Shown here in pieces: positions 5,122-25,045 of a stretch of DNA of 41,951 nt. Under the pieces are notes generated by a model. That model searched no databases. It was given only the letters and a program-made list of their open reading frames with translations, and was not told the origin of the DNA. The stretch lies in contig JBHHXN010000027.1 of NCBI GenBank assembly GCA_046757025.1, positions 1 through 41,951 on the forward strand. Reading direction: 5' to 3'. The number at the start of each line of letters is the position of its first letter. Position 1 is the stretch's first letter. This stretch comes from a bacterium (GTDB taxonomy: Bacteria > Zhuqueibacterota > Zhuqueibacteria > Oceanimicrobiales > Oceanimicrobiaceae). Position numbers and translations under genes: made by a program.

Positions 5122-6501
5122 TCAATGGGTAATCTTGGTTTTATAAGAATCGTAGTTAAAATCCGGGCTATTGTCTTCTGTGTGACATTTTAAGCAAATC
5201 TGCTCAGACACCGGCTGAAAATCCGAAGCGTTCTGGCCGTTGGTTTTGCCATTGCTGGATTTTGCTGCATTTCGCCGGCGGTTGATATGGGTCAATATGT
5301 TGTCACCATTGAAGCGGTGGCACTGTGAACATTGCACATTGACCAGGTCGGGCGTTTCTCGGATGGAAGTAAATCCGTTGGTTTCGCCATTCATAGTGGT
5401 ATGGCACTGCTGACATTCGGGATTATGATTTTGCTTTTCGCGCACCAACGTTTCCCAGGCTTTGGCATGTAAAGTGGTGCGCCATTGATGGTCCTGTTTG
5501 CGGTGACAGGCCGCGCACGAACGCTCGCTGTACCGGCTAAATTTTGTCTGTGCTTTAGGACTCTGCAAGGGGTAAGTCGCTAACAATGCCTCTTCATATT
5601 CTTTTATCACCTTTGCCAGATTTGCTTCGTCTTTAATTTTATCGCTCAAATCAACCGTTTTTCCTCTTACTTGGGAAACGGTTTCACCCGTCACAACAAA
5701 ATCCAACTGTCCCAGATATTTGCCCTGGGAGCCCGGCTGCATAATCACGGTTTCGCCGATTTTTTCAGGCTGCCGGATGTGGCTGCCACCGTGTCCGCTG
5801 ATGATAAAATCGATACCCTGAACCTGTTTCGCAAGATCTCTTGAGCCATTTAAAGACATGTGTGCAAGCGCGATCACCACATCGCATTTTTTCCTGAGCT
5901 CCTTTACGGCTTTCTTAGCGGCCGTTAGCGGGTCTTTGACTTCAAAGCCGGTTTTGGGGGTTACCATGCGGCTGATGCCTTTGGTATTCATTATGCCGAA
6001 AATGCCAAATTTTACCCCGCCAATTTTTTTGATGATGTGCGATTTGGCAAAAAGTTTATCCGTTCCGGCCTGATACACATTGGCCGAAACAAAAGGCAAA
6101 TCATACTGATCGCGCATTCTCTCCAAAAACTCTCGTCCGTACTGGAGGTCCTTTTCAGCCAAATTGATGGCATCGTATTCCAAAAGCCCCATACCCTTCA
6201 ACAGATATTCGACTTTCAGGGTCTGGGCTTTGGCGGTGGTGTAGCCAAAATCGCCGCAATCCACCAACAGTTGGTGATGGTTTTCCATCTTTACTGTGTT
6301 GATATAACTGGCTCGCCGAGCCAGACCGCCAAGCTGGCGGGCTTTTCAGCCACACGGTTTCAAATAGCCATATAAATCACTGGTAAAAAATAATTGAAAA
6401 GACACATCCTCTGGAACAGCGGACAAACAAGACATCAAAAAGAGCAAGATCACAAATCCCAGGGCGGTGACATGAATAACTTTGAACTGTTTTCTATCCA
6501 T
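5122..6501 (-). CDS. Predicted selenoprotein, 459 aa: signal/lipoprotein peptide, UshA/5'-nucleotidase-like domain with C-G-U motif (Sec52), tetraheme cytochrome c domain
   Basis: ATG 6501 with AAGGAG upstream reads MDRKQFKVIHVTALGFVILLFLMSCLSAVPEDVSFQLFFTSDLYGYLKPCG[TGA 6348-6346]KARQLGGLARRASYINTVK and continues in frame into track ORF 5122..6288. Four CxxCH motifs (CAACH, CQQCH, CSQCH, CLKCH). Confidence 0.88.
6308..6345 (-). promoter_or_regulatory. Candidate bacterial SECIS element directly 3' of the in-frame UGA
   Basis: mRNA reads UGA-AAAGC-CCGCCA(GCU)UGGCGG-U-CUGGCUC(GGC)GAGCCAG: two perfect stems, the second with a G-starting loop 28 nt after the UGA. Confidence 0.65.
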
Positions 6502-6635: not shown

Positions 6636-6678
6636 TAAAAAAGGCAGAAGCGACGATGCATTGCACGCTTCTGCCTTT
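6636..6678 (-). terminator. Rho-independent terminator
   Basis: 13-bp stem AAAGGCAGAAGCG / CGCTTCTGCCTTT followed by a T-tract on the minus strand, downstream of the 6800..7909 gene. Confidence 0.8.
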
Positions 6679-6799: not shown

Positions 6800-7909
6800 C
6801 TATCTGGCAGAAGCCACATTTCTTTTCTGCATAATAAATTGCCACGTATCATAATTTTCAAGGAGTTCTTTAATCGCCAGGCCGCCGCTTTCCCCGAACA
6901 CATCAACAAATTTTCGATAATCGACCATTTTCACATCGTTACCGATTTTGCGATTTAACTGTGCCATCAATTCCAGATAGTCCATATCCAAATCGGGGTC
7001 AAAGCTGAGGCCGAGTTTCGTTTGCAGATCGTCCGGATTGAATAAATACGCTCGCGACAGCGTTTTTTGCGCCACGTGATCGATGTATTCGATTTCCTCC
7101 GTTTTTTCCTGCCACTGAGGGTGGTTTAAGATCAGCTCCCTGATGCGGGATTCCGTAGCACTAAGCTGGGGTTGGACTTCCAGGTACCTCAAATACGACG
7201 CAGCCAATCCCGCCTCTAGTAAAGAGTTGACCAGCTCCTTATTTTCTATTTTATTCAAAGCTGCGCTGGCTTGCAATTTTTTAGCTCTTTCAACTTGAGG
7301 CAGTTTCACGAACGGCACCTTGGAAATGGTTTCCGAAGGAACGAGCAGATTGTTGTTGGCAGTCGCTTCTTTTGTTTTTGCTGATTTTTCTCCGGGGACT
7401 ACGGCTTTTGTGGAAGATTTAACTTCCTCGCCTTTGGAAGCCGCGTTTTCAGCCAGCAATTCGCGATCTTTCATCATCATAAAATAACGAAACTCGTTGT
7501 CGGTCATTTCTGAAATAGGTTTATTTTTTATTTCATCGTATTGAAAATCGCCTTCTTGCAATTCCTCTTCGGCCATTCTTGCAAATTTTACTTTTGCTTT
7601 TTTCCCATCAACTTGCAGCTCGCCCCCCTGTCGAAATCGATCATAATCTTCAACGGACAAGCGTGTACCATCGGCCAATTCAATTTCTTTGATGCGTTCC
7701 AGAATGAGCACCTCGCCGTATTCATAAGCTTTTTCCCAGTCGTTGGTCCTGAAAACTATTTTGTCCGGCAAAATATCTAACACGTCCGCTTTGATCTTGT
7801 CCCCATTTTTAAGCAAGAGGGTGACCGCATCCGTCCGTTTCACTGGAGTGTGGCCAGCGCAACCCAAAAACAACAAAATCCCTAAAAGCCCGATAATTTT
7901 CTTTTCCAT
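6800..7909 (-). CDS. Hypothetical lipoprotein
   Basis: 369-aa ORF, basic N-terminus, hydrophobic stretch and lipobox FLGC; no recognised domain. Confidence 0.75.
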   Translation of the reverse strand: MEKKIIGLLGILLFLGCAGHTPVKRTDAVTLLLKNGDKIKADVLDILPDKIVFRTNDWEKAYEYGEVLILERIKEIELADGTRLSVEDYDRFRQGGELQVDGKKAKVKFARMAEEELQEGDFQYDEIKNKPISEMTDNEFRYFMMMKDRELLAENAASKGEEVKSSTKAVVPGEKSAKTKEATANNNLLVPSETISKVPFVKLPQVERAKKLQASAALNKIENKELVNSLLEAGLAASYLRYLEVQPQLSATESRIRELILNHPQWQEKTEEIEYIDHVAQKTLSRAYLFNPDDLQTKLGLSFDPDLDMDYLELMAQLNRKIGNDVKMVDYRKFVDVFGESGGLAIKELLENYDTWQFIMQKRNVASAR

Positions 7910-13437: not shown

Positions 13438-14064
13438 TTACTTTCGCAAATCAAAGCGGTATGGCTGAGTTAACCAAAAACTCACCGGTTTATTTCCTTC
13501 CCGCGCGGGGACAAATCGGCTGCCCAACGCGGCTTCTCTGGCTGCCTGTGCGCACTTTTGGCTACCCGTGGTATTTTCGAGCACCACAACCTCCACCACT
13601 TTACCGGTTTTATCGATGTGTATGCTCAACTTCACCGTGCCCTGCACGCCCTTTTTCTTTTCGTCTTCAGGATATTCCGGGAATACCCACGCAAGGGGTC
13701 GGGGCGGCGTCAATTTCAACCCTCTGACTCCTGGAAAACCATCCGGCGTTTGGTCAAAAATGTTGGAATAATTTAAGGTCGTCTCCATGATGGTTTCGTC
13801 TTCGGGGATGGTTTCATCGTCAGAGGGAATGGGAACGGTTGGTTTGGGTGGCGGCGGATTGCGACGTACCTGGCGCGTCATTGGAATGTTTTCGACATCG
13901 ATAATAATCCTGACTGGCGGTTGTTCTTCTAATCGGACACTTACACGAGGAGAAAGGTAAATCAACAAATTGAAAAAAAACAGAGTAATGATCAGCGATT
14001 TTTTCAGATTTAATCGGTAACTCGATTTTATATCAGCCCTGAATTTTTTGTAATCAATTTGCAC
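13438..14064 (-). CDS. tonB: Energy transducer TonB family protein
   Basis: N-terminal TM helix, Pro-rich linker (PPPPKPTVPIP), C-terminal domain with PEYPEDEKKKGVQGTV and FVPAREGNKPV; GTG start. Confidence 0.85.
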   Translation of the reverse strand: MQIDYKKFRADIKSSYRLNLKKSLIITLFFFNLLIYLSPRVSVRLEEQPPVRIIIDVENIPMTRQVRRNPPPPKPTVPIPSDDETIPEDETIMETTLNYSNIFDQTPDGFPGVRGLKLTPPRPLAWVFPEYPEDEKKKGVQGTVKLSIHIDKTGKVVEVVVLENTTGSQKCAQAAREAALGSRFVPAREGNKPVSFWLTQPYRFDLRK

Positions 14065-14305
14065 AAAGTTACCACATTATTTTGGACGCTTAGCGCCAAA
14101 CAGCGACCCTGTTTTGCGATTATTGAATTGTATAAATTCGGTCACCGAAATTCGCGAATCGACGATTAAGTTTCGTTTTCGATTCACTCGACTCTATTTT
14201 ATGACTTTCCCTTTCGATTTACGCCGACGCTTGTCAGGGCCATCTTTTCGCAACAGCGTCGGCGAAAAGGCCCCGTATCTCGGCACAGGAATCCAAACAG
14301 GAACA

Positions 14306-15085
14306 TCAAATTTTTTCAACCTGATCTTGTTTCATCCAACCGACTTTGCCATCGGAGAGCCGGATTTTCACCCAATTCAGAGACTGATCCTGCAGCTGCA
14401 CTTTCACGCCTAAATGCAAGGTGAAAACATCGGTTCCGGCTTCGCCGGGGGCACTTTTGACATCCACTTTATCCACCAACACAATGGCTTCAATTTTGTT
14501 TTCGGCTTCATAAATCCGAATAATAAATATAGACGAAAAAAAAGTCAGCAAGATGCAAGTAGCGATCAAAATTCCGGCTCCGAGTTTTTTAAACGACTTC
14601 GCTTTTAATAAAATCCGAAGTGGGATCATCGTTCCAAGCAAAAGATACAGCGAAAGCGTGATAATTCCCAGCGTTTGCAAATTAAAAACATTTGCAACTT
14701 GCGATATCCATGAAAAAATAAACAACGTCGGTAATTGTGGAATGCGATCCACCACCGAAAGGTTGGCAAATTCCAGATTAAAATTGATATCTTCATTTTT
14801 GGGGTTGAGTTTTTTGGCGCGTTCGAAATTTAAGATCGCCCGCGCTAACTGCCCGTCTTTATAATACGCATTTCCGAGATTATAATAAACCTCCCAGCTC
14901 TCAAAACCCAGGGTGGCTATTTTTTCATATTCGGAAATCGCAGCCAGATAATCACCCTGCTTGTAAAGTTCATTGCCCTTCAAAAAAATAGCCTCCACCT
15001 CGCTCGCCAACGAAAATTTCACCAGCACATTCATAAATACCAACAGGAAAAGAAAATATTTCTGTGTAATTACGAAGTTTTTCAT
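14306..15085 (-). CDS. batE: BatE-like protein (TPR, TM segments, SH3b)
   Basis: YYNLGNAYYK TPR, two hydrophobic segments, SH3b tail (FTLHLGVKV...WVKIRLSDGKVGWM); 4-bp overlap with batD. Confidence 0.88.
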   Translation of the reverse strand: MKNFVITQKYFLFLLVFMNVLVKFSLASEVEAIFLKGNELYKQGDYLAAISEYEKIATLGFESWEVYYNLGNAYYKDGQLARAILNFERAKKLNPKNEDINFNLEFANLSVVDRIPQLPTLFIFSWISQVANVFNLQTLGIITLSLYLLLGTMIPLRILLKAKSFKKLGAGILIATCILLTFFSSIFIIRIYEAENKIEAIVLVDKVDVKSAPGEAGTDVFTLHLGVKVQLQDQSLNWVKIRLSDGKVGWMKQDQVEKI

Positions 15086-16917
15086 ATCACTCTATCCAGA
15101 TCGATTAAGGCTTTTTTCGCTTTATTAAAAAATGTCTTCATTTCACCGTTGTCTGAATCAGTGGGCGCAAATCGCTTAAAATCGCAGGTATTTAAGCAAT
15201 CCAGAAAACGGGAGACGATCTGGTCCTCGATACCGCGTTTACGTAACAGCGCATCAACTTGTTCGGTGATCAAACCGGCGGCTGGTACGTTGATTTTATC
15301 TCCAATAAACCCCATCAAAGCTTTCGAAACTTCGCTGTAAAATTCTCCTGGCTTGCCCTCGCGCATTTTTTTATTGGCGGTTTTCAACCTTTTTAAGGCC
15401 ATCTGGTTAGCTCGACGGCTGCGCGCGTAAGCCACATTTGAGCTCAATTTTTCGGCATGTTTGTTATAGGCCAAAGCCAGCGCCAACGTGACTACCGGAC
15501 AAAATAACAAGACGAAAAAATAAATCCTTTTGTAAAATGCCGTGCCGATTTTTTCAAATTCTGGCAAATACAATTGAATAAAGCGGATATCTTTGCCAAT
15601 GAATTGCACGTCTTCTTTGGACGTTCCCACCGGTGCGCTGAGTATCGGCTTATCTCCTTTGAGCACATCGATGGTGATGGGGGACGTTCGAATGCGCTGG
15701 TAGTTTCTTTTGACTGGATCAAAATAGGAAAACGAAATGGGTTTGATCACTTGCTTGCCCGGGAAGCGCGGAATCAAAACGTATTCAAAAGTCTTGCTGC
15801 CCGATATTTGTCCACCTTTTCTTTGAATGGATTCTTTTATTTCGGGATCGTAAACTTCGAAATCGGCTGGAATGTCCACTTTTGGATTCGGTAAAATTTT
15901 TATATTCCCCCGGCCTGCCAATTTTACCTTGAGAGTAATGGCTTCGTTGGTTTTGACTGCATGTTTGTCCACGGACGCCTGTAAAGAATAATTTCCCACC
16001 GCACCTGAAAAATCCGACGGCTTCCCTTCTTCAGGCAAAGGCATAACTTCAATTGAAATGGCATCCGAACGAATGGTCCGCCTGACCGAACGACTGAAAA
16101 AGGGATCGTCAAAAAAACTGTCGAAAATATCTCGCCGTCTCCTTTGCCGCGGTAATTGCACTTCACAATCTACCACCAGCGGATCCAGCGTTTTCACGCC
16201 CGCACTCTGTGGATACAGCGCAACCTTTTTTATTTCAGCCACTCGATATTGCCGACCATTTATCACTTCGTCTGTTATTTTTGGACGATTGGAAGTGGGA
16301 AACTCTTCGCTCCAGAAACCGACAGTATTGGGCAACTGCGAAATGCCATAGTTTGTGATATTTACGGCGGTATAGATTTTATAGGTAATTATCACCGCCT
16401 CATTCTGGTATATGCGATTTTTATTGACCGCTGCTTTTAAAAACAACTGCTCGGACAAATCGAGAGGTTCGTTTGCCGACCTGCGGCTGGATGGGTTGCC
16501 CGGTTTTGGCGCAGCCGCCCCTTTGACGATTTCGATGGGAATGGCTTTCGTAGTAAAAGATTTACCCTTGAAATTTAACCTAATGGGGGGAATTTGAAAT
16601 TTGCCGACTCGCGTTGCCACAAAATGGAAAGTGAATATTTTCGAAACCGACATTTGGCCGTTGATAAATTGGATACTTTGTGAGCTGCTGGTACCTCTAA
16701 ACGCGGCAAAATCTTCGATGTCCGGCAGAGCAGGTTGGGGAGCATTTTGGGCGTCCGCTCCGTTCAATTCCACATTCAGTTCAAACGCCTGATCCAACGG
16801 CACCACGGTTCTGTTCAAATTCGCACTTACTTGCAAATCCTGGGCAAAAATAACCGGATTGCGTAACAGCAAAAACAGCAAAATCAAAGCTGATTTTTGT
16901 TTAAAAATGCAACTCAT
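15082..16917 (-). CDS. batD: BatD family protein
   Basis: SQSIQFING, DSFFDDPFF, PLPEEGKPSDFSGAVG, FEYVLIPR, FSYFDP motifs; position within the bat operon. Confidence 0.9.
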   Translation of the reverse strand: MSCIFKQKSALILLFLLLRNPVIFAQDLQVSANLNRTVVPLDQAFELNVELNGADAQNAPQPALPDIEDFAAFRGTSSSQSIQFINGQMSVSKIFTFHFVATRVGKFQIPPIRLNFKGKSFTTKAIPIEIVKGAAAPKPGNPSSRRSANEPLDLSEQLFLKAAVNKNRIYQNEAVIITYKIYTAVNITNYGISQLPNTVGFWSEEFPTSNRPKITDEVINGRQYRVAEIKKVALYPQSAGVKTLDPLVVDCEVQLPRQRRRRDIFDSFFDDPFFSRSVRRTIRSDAISIEVMPLPEEGKPSDFSGAVGNYSLQASVDKHAVKTNEAITLKVKLAGRGNIKILPNPKVDIPADFEVYDPEIKESIQRKGGQISGSKTFEYVLIPRFPGKQVIKPISFSYFDPVKRNYQRIRTSPITIDVLKGDKPILSAPVGTSKEDVQFIGKDIRFIQLYLPEFEKIGTAFYKRIYFFVLLFCPVVTLALALAYNKHAEKLSSNVAYARSRRANQMALKRLKTANKKMREGKPGEFYSEVSKALMGFIGDKINVPAAGLITEQVDALLRKRGIEDQIVSRFLDCLNTCDFKRFAPTDSDNGEMKTFFNKAKKALIDLDRVI

Positions 16918-17076
16918 AATCTGGCCACTTTGTCAAATCGAAGAAGCTTGTTCTTTTGATGCATTTTGTGTGATCCAATAGGGGTATCAAGTAATTGGGT
17001 TCCGTATGTAGCCCTCTTGTAACTTAATAATGATAACTCACGAAACAGATGCAAATCCTAATTCTCAAAAGATAAT

Positions 17077-17245
17077 GACTGTTTGAACGAAAACTCCGTT
17101 TTTGTTATTCTGAGGTGTGAACAACGAAAAATCTAAGACCACTCTCTTTCTAGTAAGTGTAAATTTGGTGGTCGGACATTTTTCACACTCCTGCTTGCGC
17201 GGGATGATTCAGAAGGACATTTCAAGTGTTTTCGTTCAGGCGCTA
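17077..17245. mobile_element. MITE-like element (family B, copy 1) between batC and batD
   Basis: Ends GACTGTTTGAACGAAAAC / GTTTTCGTTCAGGCGCTA; degenerate internal palindrome TGTTATTCTGA...TCAGAAGGACA; ends shared with 25795..25957. Confidence 0.7.
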
Positions 17246-17285
17246 ATTTGAACCATCGGGAACGGATACGCCGGTCAAACCCCAT

Positions 17286-18026
17286 TTACTTGCCTCGTCC
17301 TTTATATTTTCTACCACGACTTTTTATTTTGTGTTTTCTCAACAAATCCTCTTCCTCATTCTCCAACGCTTTTAAAATTCGTTCGGCATCCTCTTTGGAA
17401 ATTTCCTTTTCTTCGCCAGTCATCTGCTGTTCCTGCTGTTGCTCCTGCTGCGGGTTCTCCTCGTCGTCGTGGGTTTGGGGTGGTTCTTGCGGTTGTTGCT
17501 GCTGTTCAGAATTTTCATTCTGGTTCGATTCATTTTGCTGTTGTTGTTGTTGTTGTTGTTGCTGTTGATTGGGATTCTGCTGCTGTTTTTGGGCCTCATC
17601 CTTTATTTTGGCGCGTACAAACTCTAAATTGAATTTAGCGTCTTCATCATCCGGGTTCAGCTCTAAAGCTTTTTTATACATGAAAATGCTGGAGTCCAAA
17701 CGGCCAATTTTATAATAGGCGTTTCCCATATTGTAATAGCTTTTGGATTGCAACAAAATATCGTCTGTTACCAGCGCCTTCCCGAATGACTTTAGCGCTT
17801 CCTGGTAATTTTTCTTTTTATAGAGCACGTCGCCGATATTGAAATGGATGATCGGTGAAGTTGGGTCTTCCAGCAAAGCGTCGCGATATTTGTTGTTAGC
17901 TTCGTCGTATTTCTCCTGCTGGTACAATTCATTCCCCTGCTTGACTTTTTTGCGGCCGGCCTGAGCAAAAGCTACGCTGGCAGCCAATTGAAAAACAACC
18001 ATCACTAAGATCACGTTTCGCAACAT
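17286..18026 (-). CDS. batC: BatC-like TPR protein with poly-Gln linker
   Basis: TPRs, DAKFNLE, Q-rich linker, SKEDAERILKALENEE. Start moved from 18062 to ATG 18026 (GGGAG RBS, clean signal peptide, no overlap with batB). Confidence 0.88.
   Translation of the reverse strand: MLRNVILVMVVFQLAASVAFAQAGRKKVKQGNELYQQEKYDEANNKYRDALLEDPTSPIIHFNIGDVLYKKKNYQEALKSFGKALVTDDILLQSKSYYNMGNAYYKIGRLDSSIFMYKKALELNPDDEDAKFNLEFVRAKIKDEAQKQQQNPNQQQQQQQQQQQNESNQNENSEQQQQPQEPPQTHDDEENPQQEQQQEQQMTGEEKEISKEDAERILKALENEEEDLLRKHKIKSRGRKYKGRGK
17535..17567 (-). repeat. Poly-Gln tract (11 codons, including 7 consecutive CAA)
   Basis: TTG CTG (TTG)x7 CTG TTG on the plus strand, inside batC. Confidence 0.9.
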
Positions 18027-18045
18027 TCTTGTCTCCCTGGTGTTC

Positions 18046-19083
18046 TCATTCAAATCGGCCACGCCATTCTTGACGGAGCTTCACACATTCCGGGATGATT
18101 AGCTCAACCATGAATAAGACAATCGCAATTAACAGTACAAATTGGAAACGTTCTTCATACTGTGAAAATTTCATGGATGCCAGTTCTTTTTTTTCCATTT
18201 TGGTGATTTCTTCATAAACCTTTTCTAATTTGGTCTCGCCGGTTGTAGATTGATAATATTTGCCATCAGCAGTCAACGCAATCTTCTCAAGCGTGTAATG
18301 ATCAATTTTGGTTAAATCGACTTCACCTTGATCGTTTTTGTAAAAACCAACCGGCTTGCCGGTTTCGTCGTGCAGTGGAATAGGCACCCCCGCTGGTGAG
18401 CCCATACCGACGGTGTAAATGACTATCCCTTCTTTAATGGCTTGCCGGGTAGCATCGAGCGGATCTTTATCAGTCTGGTCCTGTTCCCCGTCGGTGATCA
18501 GTACCAGCACTTTGTATTTCCGTTCCTGTCGTTCAAAGGATTTGACCGCCAGCTCGATGGCCGAACTCAAATCGGTACCCGGGTCTTCGATGAGCTCCGG
18601 CACCATGATTTCCAGAAAGGTTTTGGCGGCGCCGTAATCCAGCGTTAAGGGGCATTGCAGAAACGCATCGCCGGCAAAAGCGATGAGCCCGATGCGATCC
18701 CCCTCCATCAAATCGATAAATTGGGATATTTCGTGTTTGGCTTTGGCCAGCCGATTCGGTTTGATGTCTTCCGCTAGCATGGAATACGACACATCCAGCG
18801 CCACGATCACATCCACGCCGGCTCTGTGCACTTCTTCGAGACGGGTACCGATCTGCGGACGCGCCAGAGCCAGCGTGATAAAGGCCACGCCGAGAACGAT
18901 CAAGAACGCTTTGAATTTTTGTCGGCCGCGGCTGGTGTTTTGACTGAGCTTTTTGATTAAATCGAGATCGCCAAACCGCGCCAGAGCCCGGGTTTTCCAT
19001 TTAAATACAAAATAATAAAACCCGATAAAAATCGGCGCCAGCAAAAACAACGCAAAAAATTCACTATCGGCAAATCGCAGCAT
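18046..19083 (-). CDS. batB: BatB-like VWA domain protein
   Basis: ALARPQIG, MIDAS DVSYSM, PNRL, CPLTLDY, LITDGE. Confidence 0.9.
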   Translation of the reverse strand: MLRFADSEFFALFLLAPIFIGFYYFVFKWKTRALARFGDLDLIKKLSQNTSRGRQKFKAFLIVLGVAFITLALARPQIGTRLEEVHRAGVDVIVALDVSYSMLAEDIKPNRLAKAKHEISQFIDLMEGDRIGLIAFAGDAFLQCPLTLDYGAAKTFLEIMVPELIEDPGTDLSSAIELAVKSFERQERKYKVLVLITDGEQDQTDKDPLDATRQAIKEGIVIYTVGMGSPAGVPIPLHDETGKPVGFYKNDQGEVDLTKIDHYTLEKIALTADGKYYQSTTGETKLEKVYEEITKMEKKELASMKFSQYEERFQFVLLIAIVLFMVELIIPECVKLRQEWRGRFE

Positions 19084-19085
19084 TT

Positions 19086-20081
19086 TTACGGAATCTTTCT
19101 AAATTTGGTGTTGGTCAGGACCACTTCCAGAACAATTACCGCCAAAGCCAGAAACAAATAGTTTGTGAACAGCTCTTTAAATCGCGTAAACTGTTTGACT
19201 TCAATTTTCGTTTTTTCCAGCTCATCGATTTCTTTAAATATTTGATCCAGGCTTTCTTTGTCCGTGGCTCGAAAATATCTGGCGTTGGTGATTTTCGCGA
19301 CCTGTTTTAACATCTTCTCATCAATTTGTACTGGCATTCGCACATATCGTTTCCCAAAAATTGGATCGTCTACCGGATAAAGCGCTTCGCCGCGCTTGCC
19401 CACTCCCACCGCATAAATTCGGATATTAAACGCTGCTGCGACTTTGGCCGCGGTGATGGGATCCAATTCGCCGCGGTTATTTTGACCATCGGTTAAAAGT
19501 ATCACGACCTTGCTTTTGGCTTTACTGTCGCGCAGACGCATGGCGGCATTGGCGATGGCCATACCAATGGCCGTGCCGTCTTCGATCAGGCCGATTTCCA
19601 CTTCTTCGATGAAGTTCATCAAAATGCCGTAATCCATAGTGAGGGGACATTGCGTAAAACTTTTCGCTGCAAAAACCACCATGCCGATTCTATCATTTTG
19701 CCGGCCGCGAATAAAATCCGTGGCGACCACTTTCGCGGCTTCCAGGCGGTTATTCGGCTTAAAGTCTTCTGCCAGCATACTGCTGGAAATATCCATGGCC
19801 AGTACGATGTCGATCCCTTCTGTGATCACTTCTTCTTCGGTGCTGCCCGATTGCGGCCGGGCAAAACAGATGATCAACAGAGAAATGGCGAAAATTCTGA
19901 GCACAAAAATCAAATGACGATATCGTTTTTTGTTGGAGATTTTATCGATGCGGTTTATGACACTCAGATTTGAATAGCGCAGGGTTCCGCCTCGATTTCT
20001 ATTTTTTCTCAAATACCAGAAAACGAGAATTGGAATAAAAACAAATAAAACCAAAAATTCCGGATTAGCAAAACGAAACAT
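19086..20081 (-). CDS. batA: BatA VWA domain protein
   Basis: MFRFANP, ARPQ, EGIDIVLAMDISSSMLAEDFKPNNRL, DGTAIG, LLTDGQNNRG, YFRATD. Confidence 0.93.
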   Translation of the reverse strand: MFRFANPEFLVLFVFIPILVFWYLRKNRNRGGTLRYSNLSVINRIDKISNKKRYRHLIFVLRIFAISLLIICFARPQSGSTEEEVITEGIDIVLAMDISSSMLAEDFKPNNRLEAAKVVATDFIRGRQNDRIGMVVFAAKSFTQCPLTMDYGILMNFIEEVEIGLIEDGTAIGMAIANAAMRLRDSKAKSKVVILLTDGQNNRGELDPITAAKVAAAFNIRIYAVGVGKRGEALYPVDDPIFGKRYVRMPVQIDEKMLKQVAKITNARYFRATDKESLDQIFKEIDELEKTKIEVKQFTRFKELFTNYLFLALAVIVLEVVLTNTKFRKIP

Positions 20082-20083
20082 AC

Positions 20084-21112
20084 TTATTTCGGTTCCTCCA
20101 CATTCTCAACCATCAGATCTTCCTTTACTTCTTCGGAAGCCTCATCGAACGGTTTTTCCGCTTCACTTTGCTCTTCCTCAATGTCATAAATCAATTTTGA
20201 CTTTTCTACAATTTCAATGGCTTGTTGAAAAACAGCGCTGTGCTCCGCATCGTTTGGCTGGTATTTTGCAAATTTGACCAGATCGCACCTCTCCAGAAAG
20301 TCTTGAACCATTTCGACAAGCTCGGAATTACTTTCGGAAGCAGATAACATCTCTATCAATTCATGCGTGGTCAATTCCAGCGCAATGATAAAATAGCGTC
20401 CTTCAATATATTTTCGAATGATCTCAGATATTCGCACATAATATTCTTTGGTCTGCCCTTCTTGCAGGTAGGTAGATTGCTGCAGAGCCCGTAACTCATC
20501 CAGGGCGATTTCATGAGCTGGCCGGGGCGGCACAATTTTTTGTGGCAGCAAACCTTTGCCGGCCCTTTTTCTGCGCCAGATGTAAATCGAAACACCGGTC
20601 AAAATCAGGAAGGCCAAGGCAACGCTGCCCCAGACAATCCATTGCCGATAATCCAGTAAAATTTCCAAAACAGATTTGATATCGCGCACGTCCCCGGCTT
20701 CACTATCGAGCAAACTTTCAACGACAATTTTGAGTTTTTTGGTTTTCAAGGTGTGCTGGGTTGAATCTCCCGGTAAAGTGTAACGAAAGACCAATGGGGG
20801 GATTTCAAATTCTCCTACATCAAAAGTCGAAATCTCATACTCCACGCGTTCCACAATTTGACCTTCTTGCGATTCGGGCTCGAAGGTTTGATAATTGCGG
20901 ATTTCAAACTGGTCTAGATTGGCTGCCAGGCCCGGCATCTCCACTTGAACTTCGGGAGAGCGCATTACTACGATGGCATATTTCACCACATCACCGATGC
21001 GGATGGTGGATTTGTCCACATTGGAATCGATAGAAATGGTATTTTCCTGGCCCCGCAGCCCGAAGCTGCTCAACGCTAAAAAACAAAGTGCAATTTTAAT
21101 TTGATTGTGCAT
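20084..21112 (-). CDS. Bat-operon accessory membrane protein (beta-rich N-terminus, TM helix, helical C-terminus)
   Basis: ISTFDVGEFEIPP, DVRDIK, TM, PAHEIALDEL, KEYYVRISEIIRKYIE, ALELTTHE, DLVKFAKY; usual position before batA. Confidence 0.82.
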   Translation of the reverse strand: MHNQIKIALCFLALSSFGLRGQENTISIDSNVDKSTIRIGDVVKYAIVVMRSPEVQVEMPGLAANLDQFEIRNYQTFEPESQEGQIVERVEYEISTFDVGEFEIPPLVFRYTLPGDSTQHTLKTKKLKIVVESLLDSEAGDVRDIKSVLEILLDYRQWIVWGSVALAFLILTGVSIYIWRRKRAGKGLLPQKIVPPRPAHEIALDELRALQQSTYLQEGQTKEYYVRISEIIRKYIEGRYFIIALELTTHELIEMLSASESNSELVEMVQDFLERCDLVKFAKYQPNDAEHSAVFQQAIEIVEKSKLIYDIEEEQSEAEKPFDEASEEVKEDLMVENVEEPK

Positions 21113-21115
21113 AAA

Positions 21116-22048
21116 TCACTTCAATTTGTCTTCAAATATTTCAACAGCTTCTGCGCGAATCAATCGTTGAATGAGAAGATCGTACGCCTCCTTTTGTTTC
21201 TCGCGAATGACGTCCTGCATCACCGCGGTCTTGACTTCCTCGAACGGCCGCGTACCGATGACTTTTCCTTGATCGTCTTTTTGAGCATATTTATCTTTGT
21301 GAGCTTCGTAATACAGCTTGATATCCAATTCTTTCACATCCACTTCCTTGGAGATTTCTTCTTCCAATAGTTTTTGCACCATGAAGTTTTTCTTGGCCTG
21401 AAAAGAAGCCTCGATCACATCTTTATCCTTTTCCAGTCCCTGGCGTTTGGCGGAGTCGTAAAGCAGCTCCGTGGCAATGTATTGTTTCAGGAAATCAATT
21501 TTTTTACTGCGGTCCGAAAGCTGCGATTTCATGAAGGGCGGCATCTGGCTGATTTCAAACTCCAGATCGCCGGTGGTGATTTTTCTTTTGCCAATTTTGG
21601 CCACTACCGCGCCGGGCCGGTTCTTTTTTGCCTGGGTTGGGTCCAACAATGCGGCCTCTTCCATCACTTGCTGCGCATCGGCCGAGCGCTCCAAACGTTC
21701 CAGGCAGGCGACCATTTTTTTGTTGATTTCATCGATCAAAGGACTTTCGGGGTAGAAGTGTTTTACCTTCAAATAATAGGTCAGGGCATTTTCATAATCG
21801 CGCACTCTTTCGAAATAGATGTCGCCGATGACATAATTCAAATTGGCCGCTTCCGCATCTTCCAGGGGGTAGTTTTGTAAAATATGGTGGTACTCCGTGA
21901 TGGCCTGCTGATAAAGCTGGCGATTGTAAAGCGCATTGGCATAATCCCGCACTTTGGTCTGTTCGAATTTCGTCTGAGTTTCCTGTTGTTGACAACCCAA
22001 TGCTGCAATCAAAAACAAAAGCAAAAACGCAAATCGTTTCGTTTTCAT
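21116..22048 (-). CDS. TPR lipoprotein fused to a SurA/PrsA-type chaperone (NC) domain, no parvulin domain
   Basis: Lipobox ALGC; TPRs; VVAKIGKRKITTGDL...ELLYDSAKRQGLEKD...DIKLYYEAHKDKY...RPFEEVK...EKQKEAYDLLIQRL. Confidence 0.72.
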   Translation of the reverse strand: MKTKRFAFLLLFLIAALGCQQQETQTKFEQTKVRDYANALYNRQLYQQAITEYHHILQNYPLEDAEAANLNYVIGDIYFERVRDYENALTYYLKVKHFYPESPLIDEINKKMVACLERLERSADAQQVMEEAALLDPTQAKKNRPGAVVAKIGKRKITTGDLEFEISQMPPFMKSQLSDRSKKIDFLKQYIATELLYDSAKRQGLEKDKDVIEASFQAKKNFMVQKLLEEEISKEVDVKELDIKLYYEAHKDKYAQKDDQGKVIGTRPFEEVKTAVMQDVIREKQKEAYDLLIQRLIRAEAVEIFEDKLK

Positions 22049-22088
22049 GTTGAATCATCCTTTAATTTATATTTTATTGTCAACGCAA

Positions 22089-22967
22089 TTATCGAAATCG
22101 TTTCGCTCGCATGCGAAAAAAACGTATGAGCGGCTCAACATAAGAAACGTCGGTTCGAACATCGATCATGTCCACATTCATGGACCGCAGCAATTTATCT
22201 CTTTCGATTTTCGCAGTGGACGTTTGCGCTCGAAACGCGTCGCGAACTACGGAGTCCGTGGTATCCACCAGCAAGATTTCGCCGGTTTCCGCATCCTCCA
22301 ATTCAATGATGCCGACATCCGGCAGCTCGACTTCCCGGGGATCGGTGATGGTGATGGCCACTAAATCGTGTTTTTTGTTGGCAATTTGCAAGGCTTTCTG
22401 GTAGTCTGCGGAAATAAAATCCGACGCCAGAAAAACCACCGCCCGCCGATGGACCACCCGGCTCAAATATTCCAGCGCCAGGGCTATGTCGGTTTTTTTA
22501 CCCTGCGGCTCAAAATACAGCAATTCGCGTAATACTCGCAACACGTGAGATTTGCCTTTTTTCGGGGGCACATATTTTTCAATCTGATCGGTGAAAATGA
22601 TCAGCCCCACTTTGTCATTATTTTTTATGGCGGAAAAAGCCAGCAAAGCGCATATTTCCGTGGCGATTTCCCCTTTCATTTGTTTGACGGTGCCAAAATT
22701 CCCAGACGAGCTCACGTCCACCAGCAGCATGACCGTCAATTCGCGCTCTTCTTCAAACACTTTTACGAAAGGATGTCCCATACGGGCGGAAACATTCCAG
22801 TCGATGGTTCGGATGTCGTCCCCCAACTGGTACTCACGAACCTCCGAAAATTCCATCCCCCGGCCTTTGAAAACCGAATGGTACTCACCGGAAAAGACTT
22901 CGTTTACCAGTCCGCGAGTTTGAATTTCAATCCGTTTTACCTTTTTAAGAATTTCCTTTGGAATCAT
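22089..22967 (-). CDS. DUF58 domain protein (MoxR-associated)
   Basis: GEYHSVFKGRGMEFSEVREYQLGDDIRTIDWNVSAR, FEEEREL, DVSSS, LEDAETGE. Confidence 0.95.
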   Translation of the reverse strand: MIPKEILKKVKRIEIQTRGLVNEVFSGEYHSVFKGRGMEFSEVREYQLGDDIRTIDWNVSARMGHPFVKVFEEERELTVMLLVDVSSSGNFGTVKQMKGEIATEICALLAFSAIKNNDKVGLIIFTDQIEKYVPPKKGKSHVLRVLRELLYFEPQGKKTDIALALEYLSRVVHRRAVVFLASDFISADYQKALQIANKKHDLVAITITDPREVELPDVGIIELEDAETGEILLVDTTDSVVRDAFRAQTSTAKIERDKLLRSMNVDMIDVRTDVSYVEPLIRFFRMRAKRFR

Positions 22968-22969
22968 TT

Positions 22970-23959
22970 TTACGGTACTTCAATTTTATTCAGTACATTT
23001 CTTACCACGTCTTCGGAGGTCATTTCTTCGGCTTCGGCTTCATAAGTTACGATGATTCGGTGCCGTAAAACATCCATGCCGATGGAACGCACGTCTTCGG
23101 GCGTCACGTAGCCGCGGCGCCGCAGAAAAGCATGAGCTTTCGCCGCCTGATTCAGATAAATCGAAGCGCGGGGAGAAGCCCCAAACGCAACCAGGTCTTG
23201 AAGCTCTTCCAGGCCGTATTCTTTGGGATTACGCGTGGCAAAGACAATATCCAGAATGTACCGCTCCACTTTTTCATCCATATAAACTTCGTTTACCAGC
23301 GCGCGTGCCGAAACGATGGCTGCCGGATCGACTACCGCTTTGGTTTCGGGCACGGCCTGACCCGCCATCCGCCGCATAATTTCCAGCTCTTCCTCTTTGC
23401 TGGGGTAACCCACCGACAACTTTAACATAAATCGGTCGATCTGGGCTTCCGGCAGCGGATAGGTGCCCTCCTGTTCGATGGGATTTTGTGTGGCCAGCAC
23501 TAAAAACGGATCATCCAGTGGAAAAGTGGTATCGCCGATGGTGACCTGTCTTTCCATCATGGCTTCCAAAAGCGCGGACTGTACTTTGGCGGGTGAGCGA
23601 TTTATTTCATCCGCTAAAATTAAATTGGAAAAAATGGGGCCCTTTTTGGTGCGGAATTTGCCGTTACTCTGATCGTAGATCAAAGTGCCGATCAAATCGG
23701 CCGGAAGCAAATCCGGAGTAAATTGTAAACGTTGAAATTTAGTTTGAATGGTTGAGGAAAGGGTTTTGACCGCCATGGTTTTGGCTAATCCGGGCACGCC
23801 TTCCAGTAGTACATGGCCGTTGGCAAGCAACCCGATGAGTAAACGCTCTATCATGTACTTCTGGCCGACGATCACTTTTGCTACTTCATTGGTAATCTTT
23901 TCAACAAATTCACTTTCTTTTTTGATCTTCTCATTTATGGCTTGAATATCAACTGACAT
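22970..23959 (-). CDS. moxR: MoxR family AAA+ ATPase
   Basis: GHVLLEGVPGLAKT, QFTPDLLPAD, LADEINRSPAKVQSALLEAM, ATQNPIEQEGTYPLPEAQIDRF, GASPRA, VLRHR. Confidence 0.96.
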   Translation of the reverse strand: MSVDIQAINEKIKKESEFVEKITNEVAKVIVGQKYMIERLLIGLLANGHVLLEGVPGLAKTMAVKTLSSTIQTKFQRLQFTPDLLPADLIGTLIYDQSNGKFRTKKGPIFSNLILADEINRSPAKVQSALLEAMMERQVTIGDTTFPLDDPFLVLATQNPIEQEGTYPLPEAQIDRFMLKLSVGYPSKEEELEIMRRMAGQAVPETKAVVDPAAIVSARALVNEVYMDEKVERYILDIVFATRNPKEYGLEELQDLVAFGASPRASIYLNQAAKAHAFLRRRGYVTPEDVRSIGMDVLRHRIIVTYEAEAEEMTSEDVVRNVLNKIEVP

Positions 23960-23994
23960 CTACCCTCCTATTTTTAACGTTCTCAGCATATTAT

Positions 23995-24948
23995 TTATCC
24001 TTTCTCATTTGGCTCTGTCAACTCCAGTCTTTCGGACTTGTTTCTTTTCAGAATATCTTCGACTAACGTGTACACCCGTTCCAGCACGCCGTGTTCGACC
24101 TGACCGCCTGAAAATTTCGCGAAATCGCACGACCGCAAAACCTCGTCGGTATTTTGCAGGATAAGCTCGGGTACCGAACGAATCTTTAATTCTTCACCTA
24201 TCTCGTTGGAGGTGATTTCCAGGGCAGCAATTTGAAAGTGCTCCGAGAGATATTTTCTGAACAACCGGGATATGGCAGATAGCGCTTCTACCTGGTTGGG
24301 CGACTTCAGATCGATTTGCTGTTTCAGCTCCGAGAGATATTTTTCTTCAAGCGGAATTTGTTGCAGCTCCCGAGCTCTTAACTCCGCTTCCCGGACTTTT
24401 TTTCTTTTTAGGACCTGCACCCCCGCAAGCGACAAAGCGACCACCAGAATAAACAGCCCCCCACCGACATAATAGACTCGATAATCTTTTTCGATAATCG
24501 GCTCGATAACTTTGATTTCCAAACGATTGGTAAACAAACGACTGGATTTATCCAATATTTGATCTCGATAATCCACCATCACACCGTCGATGTAAGCCAT
24601 GCCAATTGCCACCGGTTTCAACACAAATTCATACGTTTTGCGCACTTGCTGCACTCCCGAAATTTCGCCTACCCAATTAGCGGTGGCATTGCTGACGACT
24701 TCTAAATTGCTTAAAACAGGACTTTCGATATTCTCAATCTCATATCGCTCTAAATCGCCCTGCCAGCTAACGACCACAGTGTAAGTCACGTTTCGGTTTT
24801 GGGGTACTTCTTTAGGCTCGACTTTTACCTCGGCTTTGATCATCCCTTCCGTGGACGCAGCCGCAGTAGCGGTAGAATCAAGGGTTTGCAAAAAACCGCT
24901 CTCTGCTGAAAGTAAGATCAAAAATATGGTTGTTAGTTGCATTCTCAT
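23995..24948 (-). CDS. Second Bat-accessory membrane protein, paralogous in architecture to 20084..21112
   Basis: Start moved from 25044 to ATG 24948 (GAGG RBS, signal peptide). C-terminus AISRLFRKYLSE...ALEITSNE...CDFAKFS parallels ISEIIRKYIE...ALELTTHE...CDLVKFA. Confidence 0.75.
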   Translation of the reverse strand: MRMQLTTIFLILLSAESGFLQTLDSTATAAASTEGMIKAEVKVEPKEVPQNRNVTYTVVVSWQGDLERYEIENIESPVLSNLEVVSNATANWVGEISGVQQVRKTYEFVLKPVAIGMAYIDGVMVDYRDQILDKSSRLFTNRLEIKVIEPIIEKDYRVYYVGGGLFILVVALSLAGVQVLKRKKVREAELRARELQQIPLEEKYLSELKQQIDLKSPNQVEALSAISRLFRKYLSEHFQIAALEITSNEIGEELKIRSVPELILQNTDEVLRSCDFAKFSGGQVEHGVLERVYTLVEDILKRNKSERLELTEPNEKG

Positions 24949-25045
24949 TGGCGCCTCAAAAAAATCGAATAAATATACTTTTGAGTTAAATAAAAGTTCC
25001 AGCAAAAACCAACTGCCGAAACCAGCAAAGAAAGGTCCAAACAAT

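Follow-up and report, generated by a model that had tools for sequence, protein, structure and literature searches.

The 41,951-nucleotide stretch of DNA analysed here (the window; GenBank contig JBHHXN010000027.1, from a bacterium of the Oceanimicrobiaceae, phylum Zhuqueibacterota) carries on its minus strand a gene for a predicted exported selenoprotein, in which a UshA-like domain with a Cys-Gly-Sec motif is joined to a C-terminal tetraheme cytochrome c domain. The gene is a member of the catalogued UshA-like selenoprotein family, and the in-frame TGA at its codon 52 almost certainly encodes selenocysteine. With a probability of about one half, its product is an exported periplasmic Cys/Sec oxidoreductase, built on a disarmed nucleotidase scaffold and recharged by its own four-heme domain. 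The features of the gene are collected in Table 1.

Table 1. Features of the selenoprotein gene and its surroundings, in window coordinates
Feature	Position	Strand	Details and basis
Full gene, UshA-like (seleno)protein with C-terminal tetraheme domain	5122..6501	minus	459 aa; NF041198; full-length orthologs with one TGA
Predicted N-terminal export signal, ~residues 1-28; lipobox doubtful	6418..6501	minus	basic N-terminus, hydrophobic helix 3-26
5'-nucleotidase-type metallophosphoesterase fold, degenerate metal site	5566..6411	minus	residues 31-312; Foldseek, VIA
Cys50-Gly51-Sec52 motif (predicted Sec), TGA 6348-6346	6346..6354	minus	TGA in 57/60, Cys in 3/60 loci
Predicted SECIS, 7-bp stem, GGC loop, 28 nt past UGA	6308..6324	minus	synonymous covariation 47/47
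Cytochrome c554-like tetraheme domain, four CxxCH and His345, His405, His459	5125..5538	minus	residues 322-459; PF13435, 1bvb
Shine-Dalgarno-like AAGGAG, putative	6520-6515	minus	sequence
Terminator-like hairpin and T run, end of upstream gene	6636..6678	minus	by eye; 13-bp stem, 13-nt loop

Reading frame and predicted export

The frame runs from the ATG at 6501 to a terminal TGA at 5124-5122 and comprises 459 codons, with a single in-frame TGA in the context LKPCG-TGA-KARQLGGLARRASYI. An earlier note, made from the letters alone, had described this gene (5122-6501, one TGA, four CxxCH), and its description is confirmed, including the codon-52 TGA as the sole interruption. The called ORF (5122-6288, 388 aa) indeed begins mid-domain, 71 codons past the ATG, and the truncation by gene callers foreseen in that note is seen in close database relatives (P0003-P0034), which are only 353-394 aa. 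The annotation is to be corrected from a truncated cytochrome to one exported selenoprotein (predicted); many close relatives in databases are cut short in the same way.

The putative ribosome-binding sequence is separated from the ATG by 13 nt, a spacer on the long side. The hairpin at the end of the upstream gene, whose 13-nt loop exceeds the 8 nt accepted by the hairpin scan and which is absent from the list of that scan, suggests that the selenoprotein gene has its own transcript start. A single hydrothermal-vent study accounts for all four sequencing runs that contain the stretch, and two of these, one of which may be its source, were compared with the window. In a second sample of the study, the contigs depart from the window at one letter (6233) and have the same TGA. 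No RNA runs were found among the sequencing runs containing the stretch, which says nothing on expression.

The extension to ATG 6501 gains a basic and hydrophobic N-terminus, and the N-termini of close orthologs are likewise hydrophobic, supporting the prediction of an exported 459-aa product. The LMSC lipobox and lipid anchor suggested by the earlier note are doubtful: a loose lipobox pattern is matched in just 2/21 close orthologs, the second of these matches lying early in the signal peptide, and neither lipobox nor anchor is conserved. The genome of the window (G000, 94.8% complete) contains four PF01578 matches, of sizes fitting CcmF and CcmC, and no match to ResB.

Predicted selenocysteine at codon 52

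The loci compared comprised 40 stretches from the best matches in 60 relatives, 20 more and the window, giving 61; an ordinary nucleotidase that lacks the motif was removed from these, leaving 60. At the position of codon 52, the last residue of a PCGU motif (residues 49-52) that follows the first strand, TGA is present in 57/60 loci and a Cys codon in 3/60, at identities down to ~22%. The column contains only TGA or Cys, and both sides of the TGA are conserved among homologues, as the earlier note had anticipated. The search of the 60 relatives returned many full-domain matches each carrying one TGA, and full-length database homologues show PCGC or a similar motif at this site. The genome of the window encodes selA, selB, two selD over cut-off and tRNA-Sec, alongside the cytochrome c assembly genes. 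One selD, with its own in-frame TGA, adjoins selB (G000:C73:3532-6446); the second has no TGA (G000:C344:1415-2341) and is probably a fusion, because it sits inside a 755-aa open frame.

That the TGA is instead a true stop, marking a pseudogene, a split gene or an assembly error, can be given next to no weight: read-through of codon 52 is a prediction, but the same codon is TGA throughout the loci counted above with conserved flanks, a covarying hairpin follows it, and the genome has the Sec machinery. An assembly error in particular is ruled out by the 57 homologous TGA loci and by the identical letters at the TGA in the second sample. An alternative code with TGA as Trp is rejected because the codon column contains only TGA and Cys and the sole TCA-anticodon tRNA found by ARAGORN in G000 is the tRNA-Sec.

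The Sec genes vary among the relatives. G011 (96% complete) has the sole Cys form within the family, a TGC without the hairpin; selA and selB were not found there over cut-off, and its tRNA-Sec score is borderline (47 bits vs 73-74 for two clear ones); this is a single case. G151 has the Cys form together with selA. Among genomes with the TGA form, neither selA nor selB nor tRNA-Sec scores over cut-off in G007 (76% complete), and a partial selA is all that G019 (80% complete) shows. In G006 and G008, selA and tRNA-Sec are present and selB has no match. The TGA gene is present in two copies in G019 (C310, C469) and in G047 (C29, C113), where one copy is full-length with hemes and the other short.

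Downstream of the UGA are two hairpins (-20.3 kcal/mol, z -2.0 over 63 nt), as the earlier note had observed, but only the second (6324-6308) is conserved; the first (6340-6326) is not, and is ruled out as the SECIS. The second fits the bacterial SECIS model quoted in the available text of PMC13188914, and would be read by SelB for the insertion of Sec52. Taken alone, its fold does not stand out from those obtained when the peptide is recoded with synonymous codons (P 0.18), and only 5/40 TGA loci reach P <0.05 against synonymous shuffles. Its conservation is seen in covariation, assessed in those 47 of the 57 TGA loci with an [LVM]ARRA peptide: one wobble-wobble pair is kept in all 47 (36 U-A, 7 C-G, 4 U-G) and a second in 40, counts of which neither was matched in any of 5000 shuffles, kin loci not being independent. 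The commonest codon also has a larger share of conserved columns in the hairpin region than at 28 columns elsewhere (0.71 vs 0.44). Because the Arg62/Arg63 pair overlaps the SECIS, it may owe some of its conservation to the RNA.

The three Cys loci pair at 1-3 stem positions, and eight of the 57 TGA loci at no more than 3 of 7. The common hairpin is absent from TGA loci L080, L083, L086, L087, L103, L104, L105 and L110, most of which contain another hairpin of 4 bp with a GGUCUG loop nearer the UGA, possibly a second SECIS form.

Family membership

With C in place of U, the protein scores 287.1 bits against the NCBIfam model NF041198 (UshA-like (seleno)protein, UshA_like_PCGU; cut-off 275), and the DNA 279.3 bits. 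Model positions 6-268 match the N-terminal domain and positions 345-518 the heme domain (5152-5685, E 9.6e-24). Because NF041198 already spans the heme domain, the UshA-like/heme fusion is not new: of the hidden exported UshA-like C-G-U/tetraheme selenoprotein announced in the earlier note, the gene stands but is less novel than was put forward. The statement there that UshA-like CxU selenoproteins had been predicted computationally is borne out, the family having been catalogued since 2008 as 'COG0737, UshA-like, CxU', with 76 sequences, among the most abundant selenoproteins of the ocean metagenome (PMC2398784, available text). In the accessible part of its supplement, PCGU occurs 74 times, for example within PCGUKANPLGGL. 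The family is also tabulated in PMC9312934 and PMC13188914, and the survey papers, in the portions available, give its name and motif, with no heme domain and no function. A term search of the main texts of BSepDB (PMC13326102) and bioRxiv 10.1101/2022.07.06.499078 did not find UshA. Literature searches found no functional study of the family, which Haft and Tolstoy 2025 (mSystems) may discuss.

In the phylum sample, 14/151 genomes pass the NF041198 cut-off, and many more carry a shorter TGA form that scores below it. A scan of named genome contigs gave three loci, all weak distant matches, and a search for longer fusions gave 51 matches, mostly ordinary nucleotidases. P0155 and P0171 are large proteins with a vWA domain and a fused UshA-like domain whose loop is of the PCxxC type, and possibly belong to family-2 (NF049981).

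The nucleotidase scaffold and the proposed function

The UshA-like fold named in the earlier note is well supported. In an AlphaFold2 model of the 459-aa protein (pLDDT 92.9, pTM 0.88), residues 31-312 match the 5'-nucleotidase structure 3ivd by Foldseek (E 7e-25) and by VIA (Z 35.0, rmsd 2.2, 282 aligned), with Z of 33.8 to UshA and 32.1 to SoxB. The metal site is degenerate: relative to 3ivd, DxH is replaced by DLY, GNH by AEK and GHxH by GHGG, while GD and H stay and D42, D84, H214 and H237 are kept; the roles of these motif residues we take to be those of E. coli UshA. Of the 36 rows at class level, all have C50, C/U52 and R63, whereas D42 is present in 26, D84 and E116 in 25 each, H214 and H237 in 24 each, the His of DxH in one, and the catalytic His and the second His of GHxH in none. 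In a wider set of 31 rows, drawn from 15 DNA loci and from 16 database proteins of the Cys type, C50 and C/U52 are again present throughout and the metal ligands in 13-21; the invariance of the pair in both sets is partly built in, because the rows were chosen for the motif. The UshA family model gives 69 bits against a cut-off of 600, and the substrate-binding domain PF02872 gave no match at E up to 1, its place being taken by PF13435. In UshA, according to the available text of PMC10454023, the PF02872 domain swings onto the active site.

With C50 and C/U52 invariant while the nucleotidase His residues are lost and PF02872 is absent, a redox enzyme rather than a hydrolase is likely. In the proposed mechanism, the protein would be exported and then receive its four hemes, and Cys50/Sec52 would alternate between a selenenyl-sulfide and a thiol/selenolate beside the former active site. 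The pair would attack an anionic substrate, which Arg62/Arg63 may hold, at an S-S, S-O or Se-O bond, and the c554-like domain, standing in place of the nucleotide-binding domain, would supply two electrons. Heme-less orthologs would rely on a separate electron donor instead. Periplasmic Sec working with c-type hemes has a precedent in MccSep, as described in the available text of PMC13510729.

A counterpoint to the redox reading is that the subclade of the window protein keeps D42, D84, E116, H214 and H237, and because these five residues would suffice for one metal, some probability stays with a hydrolase. By this account the protein would be a remodelled one-metal hydrolase or thiohydrolase, SoxB-like or phosphoesterase-like, with the metal on those residues, Cys50/Sec52 as ligand or nucleophile and the hemes as a redox switch. 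All five candidate ligands are present in the window protein, with Glu replacing Asn; the CxU loop comes directly after the first metal motif, the fold aligns at Z >30 with nucleotidases and SoxB, and a PPDK_N/PEP-utiliser gene directly follows in 7/20 distant loci examined. We nevertheless consider a hydrolase unlikely, since the ligands vary over both row sets where C50/U52 never do, neither the catalytic His nor the substrate-binding domain remains, and the PEP-utiliser has no full-length match in G000.

The tetraheme domain

The C-terminal domain comes after a long linker helix (293-309) in the AlphaFold2 model. Its CxxCH motifs start at C329, C363, C391 and C436, and together with the PF13435 match (52.7 bits vs cut-off 20.8, E 8.6e-14) they support the four c-type hemes of the earlier note. 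The domain matches cytochrome c554 of Nitrosomonas europaea (1bvb) at E 5.8e-7 and, by VIA, at Z 10.4 (rmsd 3.2, 136 aligned), although the c554 family model NF043010 gives only 24.8 bits against a cut-off of 400. The three non-motif His recur in 22/22 tetraheme loci, and extra Cys in none of the 22; some of these loci contain further, unconserved His or Met. As there are seven conserved His for four hemes, one heme likely has no His as sixth ligand. By reference to c554 the open heme would be heme 2, which is named as the active site of c554 in the available part of bioRxiv 10.1101/641308.

An open heme 2 raises the alternative of an MccSep-like heme enzyme, with its active site in the distal pocket of that heme and Cys50 or Sec52 reaching in from the N-terminal domain. 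Here the Cys-Gly-Sec loop would close onto the open face by an UshA-type hinge motion and reduce polysulfide, selenite or a similar oxyanion as in MccSep, whose heme 2 has a distal Cys and receives Sec from a second domain (PMC13510729, available text). The His and Cys pattern of the 22 loci and the role of heme 2 in c554 agree with this, but the loci without a heme domain still keep CGU, the MccSep/ExtKL model NF040886 gives 10.7 bits against a cut-off of 250, and the open heme may be a mere inheritance of the c554 scaffold. We regard this alternative as doubtful.

The heme domain is present in 25/60 loci and absent from 35/60; within the family and order it is found in 12 of 21 loci and missing from the other 9. 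The same family contains nine heme-less loci, of which eight share the gene neighbourhood. Seven heme-domain changes are implied by a quick tree built from 78 rows of the N-terminal domain, and well-supported branches force at least five of them. Because of these absences and forced changes, the heme domain is optional in the family and heme wiring, judged from the sequences compared, dispensable. Loss through missing maturation is ruled out, since the assembly genes (PF01578) are present in 21/21 family genomes. A split cytochrome partner for the heme-less forms is also ruled out, as no cytochrome-sized relative adjoins them; stand-alone c554-like genes (~200 aa) occur in genomes both with and without the fusion. 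G000 has 37 frames with three or more CxxCH, and one of its regions (G000:C12:12717-60526) contains 15 multiheme cytochrome frames with 3-14 CxxCH each, several with c554-like domains. The distant Cys homologues P0112 and P0123 have a Cys-rich C-terminal module instead of hemes, for which thioredoxin/DsbA/GILT-like is a lead only, the named matches scoring <0.9.

Gene neighbourhood

Neighbourhoods were compared within this phylum. Upstream of the selenoprotein gene lie a 369-aa gene, a TPR protein, a FadL-type porin, TonB and a BatA-E/MoxR cluster, and downstream a sugar epimerase-like gene, a short-chain dehydrogenase, a YjbH-like gene and a penicillin amidase. The 369-aa gene (window 6800-7909) is lipoprotein-like, has no Pfam match and stands upstream in 16/21 close loci; over the stretches compared, the BatA-E/MoxR/vWA cluster with TonB (window 13438-25044) is syntenic in close relatives. 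In more distant families the gene that directly follows is the PPDK_N/PEP-utiliser or a DEAD helicase. The PPDK_N/PEP-utiliser, of ~800 aa, is found in L072, L075, L078, L079, L081, L084 and L088, which represent three distant families, and in three of these loci it is followed by a conserved ~250-aa gene with Cys and no Pfam match. The neighbours are housekeeping genes and offer no pathway or redox context; the earlier note had suggested sulfur, selenium or metalloid chemistry, to which nothing in the annotated neighbourhoods points.

The neighbourhood also bears on whether the protein could be a non-catalytic binder of soft metals or metalloids (Cu, Hg, As), or a redox sensor, acting through Cys/Sec with the hemes setting the redox state. 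CxC/CxU pairs bind soft metals, and the catalytic residues of the fold are lost, both in keeping with such a role. However, none of the genes that recur in the annotated neighbourhoods encodes a transporter, a regulator or a resistance function, and the gene sits at a fixed housekeeping locus within its taxonomic family, which makes this role improbable. An ordinary 5'-nucleotidase with a structural Cys-Sec bond, suggested by the best structure and sequence matches being nucleotidases, is very improbable given the UshA score, the absence of PF02872 and the loss of His from three motifs.

Comparison with known systems

With the periplasmic 5'-nucleotidase UshA and with CpdB and CD73 (PDB 1ush, 3ivd), the window protein shares the N-terminal fold (Z 33.8-35.0), the GGxARxA helix and a long linker helix to a C-terminal domain. 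It differs from them in the three altered motifs, where Tyr takes the place of the DxH His, AEK that of GNH and GHGG that of GHxH, in the tetraheme domain replacing PF02872, and in the CGU located in the loop past motif I. The thiosulfohydrolase SoxB (PDB 2wdc) has the same fold, but the window protein scores 114.1 bits against the SoxB model TIGR04486, far under its cut-off of 550. The window protein has no C-terminal nucleotidase-type domain, and no sox gene is among the annotated neighbours of its gene. The earlier note had pointed to the fold shared with SoxB, but SoxB is no closer than ordinary nucleotidases (114 bits vs a cut-off of 550; Z 32.1 vs 35.0).

With respect to NF041198, the window protein is somewhat shorter than the 519-position model, and many class-level orthologs lack the heme domain and score under the cut-off. 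The lineage offers natural controls, with Sec and Cys forms and heme and heme-less forms at the same locus. Cytochrome c554 has three extra His, and its four CxxCH occur in the same order, residues 322-459 aligning to 4-180 of 1bvb. Compared with c554, the window domain is shorter, is joined to a selenoprotein domain and has no adjacent hydroxylamine oxidoreductase.

MccSep/ExtKL, the Geobacter polysulfide reductase, is, like the window protein, periplasmic, with c-type hemes and a Sec on a separate domain, according to the available text of PMC13510729, which also gives it five hemes, a Sec in a C-terminal Ig-like domain and a heme-ligating Cys. The window protein has four hemes and an N-terminal Sec, and the likeness is one of functional analogy only. 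If Sec and heme do cooperate in the window protein, selenium-heme catalysis would have a second scaffold besides that of MccSep; and if the heme 2/Sec reading were true, selenium-heme enzymes would have arisen a second time, independently, in a family found in bacteria of vents, of the sea and of many other kinds.
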